Virus record (IMG/VR): IMGVR_UViG_3300042256_000013
Location: 1 to 64,000 of that record
Length of the DNA: 64,000 nucleotides
DNA from: a virus
Lineage: Duplodnaviria; Heunggongvirae; Uroviricota; Caudoviricetes
Direction: 5' to 3' (one strand)
Shown: piece by piece, positions 46,194-48,153 of the stretch
How the letters are laid out: every line of letters begins with the position of its first letter
How positions within the stretch are numbered: the first letter of the stretch is position 1
Position numbers and translations under genes: made by a program
Notes under the pieces: model-generated
The model's database searches: none
The model's input: the letters and a program-made list of their open reading frames with translations, nothing else
What the model was told of the DNA's origin: nothing

Positions 46194-46691
46194 TTATTGT
46201 TCCTCACTTAGTTTAGTTACATGTTTAATAAGTACTGGACTTGATGGATTAGTTTTAATGTAATACGCAATCATAGCCATACGTAAACGTTTTTTGTATT
46301 CAGCAGATAAATTGCTATTCGTTTGAGAAAGATATGAGCTTACTTTTGCCCGAATAGTTGAATCTGATTCAATAACAGAAAGAATTTCTTCCATACTTTT
46401 ATATCGTAAAGTATTAGGATTATTTTGCTTCCATCGTTCAATACGAATTTGTTTTTCGGCTTCATAACGTTCGGCAGTTTGAATTTTAGCTTTTTTACGT
46501 AAAAGTCCACGAACTACCTTGAAAGTTTCAAAGGCTTTAGTTGCATGTTCACGAGTTGTCTCGTTCATGTTATGATTATTACTGTAAAGCTTTATTTTGC
46601 TCAACATTTGTGGGCTTTTCAGCATTTCAGAAACCAGTTCTTCAATAGTAAAATTGTTAATAGTTGAAACTGAACCACGACGACCAGCCAT
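46194..46691 (-). CDS. hypothetical basic protein (165 aa) immediately downstream of the sigma gene
   Basis: Near-overlapping stop and start with the sigma gene suggests co-translation. Confidence 0.5.
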   Translation of the reverse strand: MAGRRGSVSTINNFTIEELVSEMLKSPQMLSKIKLYSNNHNMNETTREHATKAFETFKVVRGLLRKKAKIQTAERYEAEKQIRIERWKQNNPNTLRYKSMEEILSVIESDSTIRAKVSSYLSQTNSNLSAEYKKRLRMAMIAYYIKTNPSSPVLIKHVTKLSEEQ

Positions 46692-46703
46692 ATTTGTTTA
46701 CCT

Positions 46704-47699
46704 TTAATCAAAGTTGATATTGTTACGTTCTACGATGCGACGTACTTTATCCATCATATCATTGTAACGACGAGAAAGAGTTGCCTTAGATGTTACCCAT
46801 TTACCTTTACCATCGATATAACCACTTTCAATGATTTCATCAAAGGTATGCATTTTATAACCATCAAGACCATGACATAAACCAAGTAATACGCGTTCGT
46901 GTTCTTCCAATTGATCCATGATTTCATCCATCACGGTAAGGAAGTCTTTGTTCATGACACGTTCATCAACAACATAATCAGCACTATCAGAAGTAATAAT
47001 ATCTTTCAGAGTTTGTTCTGAACCTTCTTCACCACGATTCATAGGTGTGTCAATGCTGAAAGTATTGGCATTGTAGTTCATTATACGCTTCACTGCACGA
47101 ATATCAATGCCAGAACCAGCAGAAATTTGCTCATTCGTTGGATAGCCAGTATTTTCTGTCATATAGCGTTCAATGAATGCCTGAATACGAATGTTATCAC
47201 GTGACAGATGTTCTGGTAACGCCACCATACGAACTTCGTTATTACCATTACGATACATATGTTGACGAATTGTAGTAGTGGCATAAGTACTGAATAGCGT
47301 TCTGAATTGACCGTTATATCCATAGATAGCTTTCATCAGACCTTCGAACCCGTATTGTACTTTATCCTGGAACGGAATATTACAAGTACAGTTCTTTGCT
47401 TCATTGTAAACTAAGCCAGAATTGAACAAAATAATTTTGTTCTTTGCTTCTTCTGCGTTTACACCTTCTTGTACTTGTTTAACAAGTTCTTCGTTACTAA
47501 TGTATTGCCCCGTTTTAACTGACGCTTTGATTTTATCCAGAGTTAAACCACCTTCAGGGATTGAATCATCTGCTACTTCATCATCGTCATCTTCTGACAA
47601 TTCTAAAGGAACATTGTTTTCATCTTCGAAGCACTCATTCAGTACTTCATCTTGGATTTCATCTAAGTTTAGTTGTTTCGGACCCACATCAATCTCCAT
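46704..47699 (-). CDS. sigma-70 family RNA polymerase sigma factor (331 aa)
   Basis: Region 2.3/2.4 signature LFSTYATTTIRQHMYRN (compare FSTYATWWIRQ); acidic N-terminal stretch; C-terminal HTH-like segment. Confidence 0.75.
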   Translation of the reverse strand: MEIDVGPKQLNLDEIQDEVLNECFEDENNVPLELSEDDDDEVADDSIPEGGLTLDKIKASVKTGQYISNEELVKQVQEGVNAEEAKNKIILFNSGLVYNEAKNCTCNIPFQDKVQYGFEGLMKAIYGYNGQFRTLFSTYATTTIRQHMYRNGNNEVRMVALPEHLSRDNIRIQAFIERYMTENTGYPTNEQISAGSGIDIRAVKRIMNYNANTFSIDTPMNRGEEGSEQTLKDIITSDSADYVVDERVMNKDFLTVMDEIMDQLEEHERVLLGLCHGLDGYKMHTFDEIIESGYIDGKGKWVTSKATLSRRYNDMMDKVRRIVERNNINFD

Positions 47700-47737
47700 G
47701 TATATATTCTGTACGACATTTTATTTCCAATAAAAAA

Positions 47738-47765
47738 AGGCCATCAGATGATGGCCTTTTTCTTT
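47738..47765. terminator. bidirectional intrinsic terminator (AAAGGCCATCAGATGATGGCCTTT)
   Basis: Perfect hairpin with an A-run on one side and a T-run on the other. Confidence 0.8.
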
Positions 47766-47776
47766 CTTAAAAGTTA

Positions 47777-47926
47777 TTATGCTTCGCGAGTACTACGAAT
47801 AATAATATCGTTACCTTTCTCGCGTTTAGCAGCGGTTCGTGCTTCTTCTGGTGAACGTGCACCTTGGCGAGTACTTAACGGTACTGAGCCGCCTTTCTGG
47901 AAGTATTCAACGATGTATTCTTTCAT
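47777..47926 (-). CDS. small basic protein (49 aa, MKEYIVEYFQKGGSVPLSTRQGARSPEEARTAAKREKGNDIIIRSTREA)
   Basis: ATGA overlap with the stop of the HTH gene; GGAGGAAGTACT-ATG; not in ORF track. Confidence 0.45.
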   Translation of the reverse strand: MKEYIVEYFQKGGSVPLSTRQGARSPEEARTAAKREKGNDIIIRSTREA

Positions 47927-48153
47927 AGTACTTCCTCCTTTGGAGATACTTCAACTTCAACATCGAAGCCCAAGGCTTCTACATATTTCATTAATTCATC
48001 AATGGTGAACATGTACAGACGTTCATCAAGAAGATTTGAAACACGTGCCTGATGGAGATCGAACTTACGTGCCAGGTCACGTTGACCGAGGCGACGTTCA
48101 TCAGCAGTGGTCTTAATAATATTGACCAGATTGGATTTGATTTTATTACTCAT
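47923..48153 (-). CDS. XRE-family helix-turn-helix DNA-binding protein (76 aa)
   Basis: RRLGQRDLARKFDLHQARVSNL matches the XRE/Cro-type HTH. Confidence 0.65.
   Translation of the reverse strand: MSNKIKSNLVNIIKTTADERRLGQRDLARKFDLHQARVSNLLDERLYMFTIDELMKYVEALGFDVEVEVSPKEEVL

Follow-up and report, generated by a model that had tools for sequence, protein, structure and literature searches.

Jumbo myoviruses of the 'Rak2-like' group, among them Xanthomonas phage XbC2, Erwinia phage Kaldavass, Pectobacterium phage CBB and Cronobacter phage GAP32, have genomes of ~350-380 kb. According to a comparative review, 'group 2' jumbo phages lack an RNA polymerase (RNAP) of their own and carry a minimal sigma factor together with an RpoD-like sigma factor (PMC7824862). 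For CBB, the genes encoding a helix-turn-helix (HTH) protein (CBB_511) and a sigma factor (CBB_513) were assigned by the authors to an early region rich in RpoD promoters and were considered early genes that likely override host transcription (PMC5259590). The same study described a second promoter class, also found in GAP32, in which a sigma70-like -10 element is combined with TGAAACG in the place of the -35 element (PMC5259590, Table S6); this class is concentrated before DNA-metabolism genes, with one copy before the gene for a gp55-like late sigma factor, and CBB has in addition T4-like late promoters resembling TATAAATA (PMC5259590). The paper on RaK2 is silent on promoters and sigma factors, and we found no functional study of this sigma factor or its phage orthologs in the searched literature. 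Here, we describe the sigma factor locus in a 64-kb stretch of viral DNA (positions 1 to 64,000 of IMG/VR record IMGVR_UViG_3300042256_000013), hereafter referred to as the window. All coordinates are positions in the window, and every gene of the sigma locus lies on the minus strand.

The window derives from a ~370-kb jumbo myovirus of the GAP32/CBB/Kaldavass-like (Rak2-like) type. Its DNA is ~82% identical to that of XbC2 and Kaldavass, and the sigma gene is ~79% identical to its counterparts in CBB and GAP32. By alignment, the open reading frame (ORF) at 46704-47699 is an ortholog of the annotated sigma factors GAP32_490 and CBB_513. Orthologs are present in 99 phage records, nearly all of them annotated as sigma factors, and fall into the branches GAP32/CBB, BF/fHe-Yen9, XaC1, Munch/7t3, 121Q/PBECO4 and RaK2/K64-1. 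An initial annotation of the window had recognised the ORF by the motif FSTYATTTIRQ; the motif occupies residues 136-146, and membership in the sigma-70 family is confirmed by PHROG, NCBIfam and Pfam region 2 models. The four ORFs listed there (76, 49, 331 and 165 aa) are all present on the minus strand, and the proposal that the phage uses its own sigma factor with the host core agrees with a sigma-70-family ORF in a phage without its own RNAP (PMC7824862). The identification is correct yet not new, because the CBB paper, the jumbo phage review and the GenBank annotations already name the sigma factor, which is ordinary for this phage group. What is new, as judged from synteny, are the constant companions of the sigma gene, namely a 49-aa protein encoded upstream and a terminator-like hairpin ahead of the sigma gene, and not the HTH protein or the 165-aa protein encoded downstream. 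We propose, with a probability of roughly 0.6, that the locus is a conserved early transcription take-over cassette and that its product is a middle-phase sigma factor reading promoters of the TGAAACG class.

Constant companions of the sigma gene

Gene order was compared in a sample of 14 lineages, which included window/Kaldavass/XbC2, CBB, GAP32, BF/pEa_SNUABM, fHe-Yen9, XaC1, Munch, 121Q and five metagenomic contigs with sigma factors at 65, 47, 42, 39 and 38% identity. A homolog of the 49-aa gene (48-51 aa) lies directly upstream of the sigma gene in 12 of them, the exceptions being Munch and 121Q, and the pairing holds down to a sigma identity of 38%, with the lineages at 38-47% included. 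Between the window and Kaldavass, the 49-aa gene shows 17 synonymous versus 2 nonsynonymous codon differences, a pattern that points to strong purifying selection. The protein family is very small and clade-specific: phmmer, run exhaustively against 1.8 billion protein representatives, returned 8 matches, six of which were small orthologs, and a profile search of the PDB gave as its sole match a beta-alpha unit of designed TIM barrels and no relative of known structure. Its genomic distribution marks the 49-aa protein as an evolutionarily constant partner of the sigma factor, with or on which it probably acts.

The second constant element is a hairpin at 47765-47732, with a 7-bp stem containing 5 G-C pairs, a 4-nt loop and a U7 tract, in an intergenic region whose predicted fold has a free energy of -21.5 kcal/mol. 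The GC-rich stem directly followed by a U-run meets the pattern of an intrinsic (Rho-independent) terminator, and transcription would be predicted to terminate here. A hairpin with a T-run is found at the same place in 13 of the 14 lineages, including every lineage that has the small gene, and in Munch it directly precedes the sigma gene even though the small gene is absent. The stems themselves are unrelated between lineages (GGCCATC, GCCAG, GCCAC, GCTCACA and CCCACA). A strong bidirectional terminator had been annotated upstream of the sigma gene; the hairpin is real, while the attribute 'bidirectional' is without consequence, because all flanking genes lie on one strand.

The hairpin ends 44 nt before the GTG at which the sigma factor probably starts (see below). 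Across most lineages, 20-45 nt separate the T-run from the sigma start, and most of this distance is occupied by the ribosome-binding site; it is longer in XaC1 and in the metagenomic contig L010, and comes to no more than ~20 nt in the contigs L011 and L012. Neither scanning nor inspection by eye revealed a promoter between the hairpin and the sigma start in 12 lineages, and a scan of the window found no sigma70-like site other than 48216-48187 between that promoter and the sigma start. We infer that 48216-48187 is the start of a transcription unit encompassing the HTH, 49-aa and sigma genes in the window phage, and because no promoter-like sequence lies between the hairpin and the sigma start, the sigma factor is probably made by read-through of the hairpin from this sigma70 promoter.

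Hairpins also accompany promoters elsewhere in the group. At the motif loci collected from IMG/VR (L020-L099), many TGAAACG promoters of relatives are followed within ~10 nt by a hairpin and T-run and then by CATGGAG and a start codon, and the Munch sigma gene has the same promoter-hairpin-gene layout upstream. Hairpins located behind TGAAACG promoters may be 5' stabilisers or regulated attenuators instead of simple terminators.

The sigma factor and its candidate promoters

The sigma factor matches PHROG 351, 'RNA polymerase sigma factor' (E=7.5e-56), and the NCBIfam model RpoD_Cterm with 97 bits over residues 85-291; models for RpoS and other primary-like sigma factors match as well. The nearest solved structures in sequence searches are SigA, SigB, RpoS and RpoD (E down to 9e-18), and sigmaS and sigmaA holoenzyme chains rank first in Foldseek. 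Orthologs in GAP32, CBB, BF, fHe-Yen9-04, Kaldavass and XbC2 align over the full length at 70-93% identity, the highest value being that for Kaldavass (93%). At the level of Pfam domains, the check suggested by the initial annotation gave a divided answer, in that Sigma70_r2 matches just above its cutoff (24.7 versus 24.0 bits) and Sigma70_r4 is absent from the results. Sigma70_r3 scores 20.7 bits, below its cutoff of 25.3, and r1_1 and r1_2 gave no match. Region 3 is nevertheless present, because r3 is recorded for most orthologs, the RpoD_Cterm and PDB alignments span the region and the equivalent of sigma70 residue H455 is kept. Taken together, the profile and structure matches assign the protein to the group-1/2-like (RpoD/RpoS-type) sigma factors, with regions 1.2 to 4.

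Alignment with cellular sigma factors shows which residues have been retained, with numbering and roles following the established sigma70 literature. The equivalents of N383, D403, Q406, G408, Y430, Q437, R441 and H455 are conserved, and those of E420, R423, Y425, K426, T440 and E458 are changed. The W433/W434 dyad, which serves promoter melting by group 1-2 sigma factors, is replaced by TT in this sigma factor and, among the other phage orthologs, by TA, MT, AS, RI, HP or SS; every cellular sequence in this alignment has WW, and no phage ortholog does. At its N-terminus the protein carries an acidic extension, with a net charge of -17.5 over the first 65 residues (-26 for the whole sigma factor) and the motif LNLDxIxDEVLDECF conserved clade-wide. 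Translation probably starts at GTG 47687 and not at ATG 47699, which would give a protein of 327 aa, because GTG 47687 is preceded at 6 nt by GGAG (GGAG-N6-GTG) and the sigma genes of CBB, GAP32, BF and fHe-Yen9-04 start at the aligned GTG; ATG 47699 overlaps the Shine-Dalgarno sequence of GTG 47687. Within the sigma ORF, at the codons for the conserved VKRIMNYN, lies the sequence TTGATA-16-TATAAT (47080-47107, minus strand; 11/12 match to consensus), which could have arisen by chance or could drive the downstream genes as an internal promoter.

The question of region 4, whose HTH is central to the sigma assignment, was addressed with more sensitive comparisons. Pfam Sigma70_r4 (PF04545) matches neither this sigma factor nor any of 69 phage orthologs, although it is present in every cellular match of the same search. 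In hhalign, the phage C-termini matched cellular region 4 with a probability of 95.8% (E=7e-9) over region 4.1 and the first helix of 4.2, the phmmer alignment to Thermus SigA reaches residue 412 of 423, and the AlphaFold2 (AF2) model places helices at residues 253-263, 266-276, 286-292 and 305-325 of the segment 253-325 (predicted local distance difference test, pLDDT, 82-92), with a short beta-hairpin inserted between the last two. Since hhalign, phmmer and AF2 agree, region 4, comprising 4.1 and the 4.2 HTH, is present, and on this point the earlier sigma claim stands. The 4.2 HTH is non-canonical. An insertion of ~9 residues with the pattern G-Y-[IV]-D-x-x-G-K-x-x-x-S is conserved clade-wide between its two helices and may account for the missing Sigma70_r4 match, and none of the sigma70 residues that contact the -35 element (R584, E585, R586, R588 and Q589) is kept.

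As for the promoters, the window contains 16 near-consensus TTGACN-16/18-TATAAT sites, 15 of them on the minus strand, in line with the earlier remark that the nearby early promoters follow the sigma70 consensus. The TGAAACG class, with the motif TGAAACG-N16-TATAAT, equals TGAAAC-17-TATAAT with an extended -10 element (TGnTATAAT) and is represented in the window by four copies on the minus strand, at 27838, 43484, 60406 and 60498. The last two form a tandem of TGAAACG/TGGAACG-type extended -10 promoters (60498-60470 and 60406-60378) before a cluster of five tRNA genes (60135-61934, minus strand). When 2.9 million viral contigs in IMG/VR were scanned with the strict pattern TGAAACG-N13-TGNTATAAT, at least 50 of the about 93 matches listed fell in seven GAP32-like genomes of 354-378 kb, which among the matches listed have 3-12 strict matches each against an expectation of ~0.001. 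Common to the sites listed are an A-tract upstream and a GTGgTATAATaTA core. Because of this enrichment in GAP32-like genomes, the TGAAACG class is taken to be real, and it appears to be specific to the branch with this sigma subfamily. It is also the best candidate target by elimination, because host sigma70 covers the early and the gp55-like sigma factor the late promoters, and the altered region 4.2 fits an altered -35 element. The most likely targets of the sigma factor would thus be TGAAACG-N16-TATAAT promoters.

Proposed cascade and alternative explanations

These observations can be assembled into the following model. Host sigma70 holoenzyme would start at 48216-48187 and transcribe the HTH and 49-aa genes. 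Part of this transcription would pass the hairpin, so that the sigma factor would be an attenuated, delayed-early product, less abundant than the 49-aa protein, because there is neither room nor a signal for a separate promoter after the hairpin. The sigma factor, which would derive from a cellular group-1/2 sigma, is predicted to have kept region 3 and, within region 2, the residues for core binding along with some of those that read the -10 element; its region 4.2 would have been remodelled by the ~9-residue insertion in the HTH turn and by loss of the -35 contact residues, and it lacks the tryptophan dyad. Bound to host core, it would direct transcription from TGAAACG-N16-TATAAT promoters, and so of DNA-metabolism genes, tRNA genes and the gene for the gp55-like late sigma factor. 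The outcome would be a three-step cascade leading from host sigma70 through the phage RpoD-like sigma factor to the gp55-like sigma factor, with the HTH and 165-aa proteins as lineage-specific accessories. A more specific version of this idea, which we advance tentatively and at clearly less than even odds, is that the RpoD-like sigma factor and the 49-aa protein form a two-component switch for middle transcription that is gated by the intervening hairpin: region 4.2 would read the TGAAACG -35 element, the extended -10 element would be retained and the small protein, as an obligatory subunit, chaperone, anti-sigma factor or read-through factor, would set both the timing and the amount of active sigma factor.

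Several points weigh against the assignment of the sigma factor to the TGAAACG class. In an alternative reading, TTGAAA-18-TGnTATAAT, the TGAAACG promoters come near the sigma70 consensus, and they could be served by host sigma70 itself or by host sigma70 with the help of an activator. TATAAT is not guaranteed to be the -10 element of this sigma factor, in that neither the melting dyad nor the -11A pocket, formed in sigma70 by E420, R423, Y425 and K426, is conserved. Sigma70_r4 did not match even the isolated C-terminus or three versions of it from which the insertion had been deleted in silico. The link between sigma factor and promoter is drawn from sequence, with motif counts from GAP32-like genomes; read-through of the hairpin is likewise drawn from sequence, and the hairpin could instead be a processing or stabilising element. 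Part of this evidence would suit a sigma factor that stands in for host sigma70 on TTGACA/TATAAT promoters once host sigma70 has been inactivated or outcompeted, the TGAAACG promoters being left to host sigma70 with or without an unidentified activator: the phage protein is most like primary and RpoS-type sigma factors, retains the equivalents of Q437, R441, Y430 and H455, and the TGAAACG promoters are as close to the sigma70 consensus as just described. We consider this unlikely, given that all five -35 contact residues have been lost and the insertion in 4.2 is conserved, and that two sharply distinct -35 classes sharing one -10 element suggest two readers of the -35 element. Loss of the melting dyad throughout the clade, a non-canonical 4.2 HTH and conservation of the core-binding residues D403 and Q406 would also be expected of a decoy that sequesters host core RNAP for shut-off and initiates at specific promoters little or not at all; such a role is very unlikely, as regions 2.4 and 3.0, like the long 4.2 recognition helix, stay conserved across the clade down to 31% identity, which is unexpected for a mere core binder, and the clade-specific promoter class would lack another obvious reader. 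A middle-phase sigma factor for the TGAAACG class therefore remains the reading we prefer.

Other divisions of labour within the cassette have to be weighed as well. The HTH and 49-aa genes had been described as an ATGA-coupled pair; the XRE-type (HTH_37) assignment is sound and the ATGA overlap of stop and start codon is real in the window, CBB and GAP32, but the pair is not a conserved unit, since the HTH gene precedes the 49-aa gene in 3 of the 14 lineages (window/XbC2/Kaldavass, CBB and GAP32) as against 12 for the 49-aa gene, and Kaldavass, although it has both genes, lacks the overlap. The slot before the 49-aa gene holds another gene or nothing in fHe-Yen9-04, BF and the metagenomic lineages; in fHe-Yen9-04 its occupant encodes a membrane protein. 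The overlap, together with a weak HipB-type match of the HTH protein in the family search and the frequent role of HTH_37 proteins as antitoxins, could be taken to mean that the two genes act as a toxin-antitoxin-like pair, or as a repressor and its modulator, independently of the sigma gene from which a terminator separates them. This is highly improbable, because in most lineages the 49-aa gene occurs without the HTH gene and always adjoins the sigma gene, the overlap has been lost in Kaldavass, and the 49-aa protein matches no toxin family in family searches and has its own strong GGAGG Shine-Dalgarno sequence; a type II toxin-antitoxin system was accordingly rejected on synteny and for want of a toxin-family partner. 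From its distribution, the HTH gene rather appears to be a lineage-specific accessory insert in the cassette. Downstream, the 165-aa gene had been put forward as co-translated with the sigma gene and as encoding an anti-sigma factor or co-factor. Its ATG follows the sigma stop codon after 12 nt without overlap, so that the two genes are co-transcribed at most. That the protein is a dedicated anti-sigma factor or co-factor, made in step with the sigma factor from the same mRNA, might be argued from the constant spacing of 11-13 nt after the sigma stop wherever the gene is present (Kaldavass, fHe-Yen9-04, BF and the contig L009), from its strongly basic character (net charge +12) beside a very acidic sigma factor, which makes contact between the two conceivable, and from a confident AF2 model (pLDDT 89.7), an all-alpha fold in which a long helix connects two three-helix modules resembling each other. 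We judge it quite unlikely all the same. The gene occurs in 5 of the 14 sampled lineages and is absent from CBB, GAP32, XaC1, Munch, 121Q and the contigs L010-L013, all of which keep the sigma gene; it evolves much faster than the sigma gene (58% versus 93% identity to Kaldavass); and the protein shows no sequence or fold relation to AsiA, Rsd/AlgQ, FlgM, the ECF anti-sigma domain, Crl or RbpA, no match in Pfam, PHROGs, NCBIfam or PADLOC, no sequence relative in the PDB and, in BFVD, matches to its own orthologs only.

The 165-aa family comprises ~19 members, all in this phage group, and its homologs are found only after the sigma gene, at 58-59% identity in Kaldavass/XbC2, 35% in fHe-Yen9, 29% in L009 and 23% in BF/pEa_SNUABM, the last relationship being confirmed structurally (E=4e-5). 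Where the gene is missing, the post-sigma slot is empty (CBB), holds the HNH endonuclease gene GAP32_491 (GAP32; L005:4018-4527) or is occupied by unrelated genes (deeper lineages). This suggests that the slot is prone to the insertion of mobile or accessory genes, and the 165-aa gene itself looks to be a fast-evolving, lineage-restricted and dispensable accessory. A protein identical to the product of 46194-46691 (P0121) bears the JGI source name 'autonomous glycyl radical cofactor GrcA', which is likely a misannotation, as no family search supports GrcA. The 165-aa protein is also matched at 100% identity on a JGI contig of 371,104 nt.

Neighbouring features and comparison with known systems

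The features of the locus are collected in Table 1. The 238-aa gene is conserved downstream of the sigma gene in the GAP32-like group. On the other side of the cassette, the ORF at 48224-48640 (minus strand) encodes a predicted membrane protein of 138 aa that resembles, by eye only, g497 of fHe-Yen9-04. In that phage, g497 takes the place immediately before the 49-aa gene that the HTH gene occupies in the window, which suggests that the HTH gene came in as a module together with its own consensus promoter.

Table 1. Features of the sigma factor locus, in the order of transcription (window coordinates).
Feature	Position	Strand	Remarks
Sigma70-type promoter TTGACA-18-TATAAT	48187..48216	minus	12/12 consensus; 34 nt upstream of HTH start
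XRE-type HTH_37 DNA-binding protein, 76 aa	47923..48153	minus	Pfam HTH_37 E=1.4e-16
Orphan 49-aa protein, mildly basic, pI 9.7	47777..47926	minus	PHROG 36312 E=1.2e-22
Intrinsic-terminator-like hairpin	47732..47765	minus	stem GGCCATC/GATGGCC, loop ATCT, A-run before, U7 after
RpoD/RpoS-like sigma factor, ORF 331 aa (likely 327 aa)	46704..47699	minus	profile, structure and alignment matches
165-aa all-alpha basic protein, pI 9.9, internal duplication	46194..46691	minus	lineage-restricted, post-sigma slot
Acidic 238-aa protein, 'gp057-like'	45477..46193	minus	PHROG 11912; start abuts 165-aa stop (TAAATG)
Terminator-like hairpin, probable end of sigma transcription unit	45455..45471	minus	sequence scan
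DksA/TraR-type C4 zinc-finger protein, 86 aa	44116..44376	minus	Pfam zf-dskA_traR E=8.6e-11

Just upstream of the sigma cassette lies a region of ~0.9 kb (48860-49790, minus strand) without a credible ORF. It begins after a promoter (49820-49792) that is conserved in six phages, and with 81.7% identity to GAP32 over 880 nt it is better conserved than the sigma gene itself. A module of ~275 nt at the 3' end of this RNA contains 10 helices with 64 pairs, 32 of which have undergone compensatory double changes when seven phages are compared; paired cells make up 96.4%, a value that 0 of 500 shuffles reached, and slid controls yielded 3-8 pairs. These covariation data argue for a structured non-coding RNA (ncRNA). 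No family match was found in Rfam for the non-coding region upstream of the locus, and a 24-mer from the ncRNA occurs in IMG/VR in six GAP32-like genomes only. Between the ncRNA and the sigma cassette, a second small transcription unit (48650-48811, minus strand) consists of a promoter, TTGACAACCAGGGAATAGCCGACTATACT, followed by a sequence of ~110 nt that is conserved in Kaldavass, CBB and BF, and ends with a hairpin terminator (48678-48663). In Kaldavass and CBB the unit directly precedes the HTH gene, and in an Rfam search it gave a weak, sub-threshold match to sroH only; it could be a small RNA or a leader.

AGTACT-containing sites had been suggested as candidate promoters of the phage sigma factor, a suggestion that did not survive analysis. 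The hexamer occurs 279 times in the window against ~21 expected (13-fold), mostly within ORFs, whatever their frame, but also between genes, and no other palindromic hexamer is in comparable excess. It is 7-20-fold in excess in every Rak2-like lineage sampled (L001-L013), including 121Q and Munch, and stands at the -35 position in 0 of the 16 early promoters obtained by the pattern scan. The local 'AGTACT promoter' (48925-48896) lies inside the ncRNA, where its TATAAT falls in the loop of a covarying hairpin. Several GC-rich palindromes, such as CCATGG, CAGCTG and AGCGCT, are absent altogether.

Collectively, our analysis offers a sharper model of how transcription is timed in Rak2-like jumbo phages, a subject so far without experimental study. 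It provides a candidate pair of sigma factor and promoter class. It also brings out a deeply conserved module, not remarked on before, in which a small protein and a hairpin accompany a sigma factor that has naturally lost the tryptophan dyad and has a rebuilt HTH for reading the -35 element. Two misleading leads, the 165-aa 'anti-sigma factor' and the AGTACT 'promoters', can be set aside.

Compared with GAP32_490, CBB_513 and their orthologs, the window sigma gene has the same position in the early region and likewise has the 49-aa gene and the hairpin upstream; the differences concern accessory genes only, namely whether the HTH gene is present and whether the sigma gene is followed by the 165-aa gene, an HNH endonuclease gene or nothing. 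With cellular group 1/2 sigma factors (RpoD, RpoS and Bacillus SigA) the phage protein shares the domain order 1.2, 2, 3, 4, the FSTYAT..IRQ core of regions 2.3/2.4 and the core-binding positions D403 and Q406, and its acidic N-terminal segment is reminiscent of region 1.1. On the other hand, it is only 23-25% identical to them, has TT in the place of W433/W434 and a mostly changed -11A pocket, contains the ~9-aa insertion in 4.2, and lacks the -35 contact residues and matches to Pfam r4, r1_1 and r1_2. Plasmid- and phage-encoded regulators of the TraR/DksA type, which act in the RNAP secondary channel, find a parallel in the 86-aa zf-dskA_traR protein encoded in the co-directional array near the sigma gene, although it is specified by a separate gene ~2.3 kb from the sigma gene and beyond a terminator. 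A zf-dskA_traR gene is also found near the sigma gene in Kaldavass, fHe-Yen9-04 and BF, and two genes after it in the contig L013; the 86-aa zinc-finger protein is likely a secondary-channel binder, and the recurrence of such genes fits a cluster of early genes directed at RNAP.

The closest functional parallels are the sigma cascades of other phages. In Bacillus phage SPO1 (gp28 / gp33-gp34 cascade), an early, host-transcribed phage sigma factor replaces the host primary sigma and turns on the next class of genes, and a later phage sigma factor serves the late genes (see also PMC13401047). However, gp28 is small and highly divergent, whereas the window sigma factor is near-complete and RpoD-like, and we claim no homology between them beyond the family level. 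In phage T4, middle transcription by AsiA/MotA likewise uses a sigma70-like -10 element together with a phage-specific element that replaces the -35 element, and the counterpart of T4 gp55 is found in the clade of the window phage, which carries a gp55-like late sigma factor and TATAAATA-like late promoters. The difference lies in how the -35 reader is changed: AsiA remodels region 4 of host sigma70 and MotA is added, whereas the window phage appears to bring a whole sigma factor with an altered region 4. If the two-component switch outlined above is real, jumbo phages of this group would supply an entire sigma factor instead of remodelling that of the host, as T4 does with AsiA/MotA.

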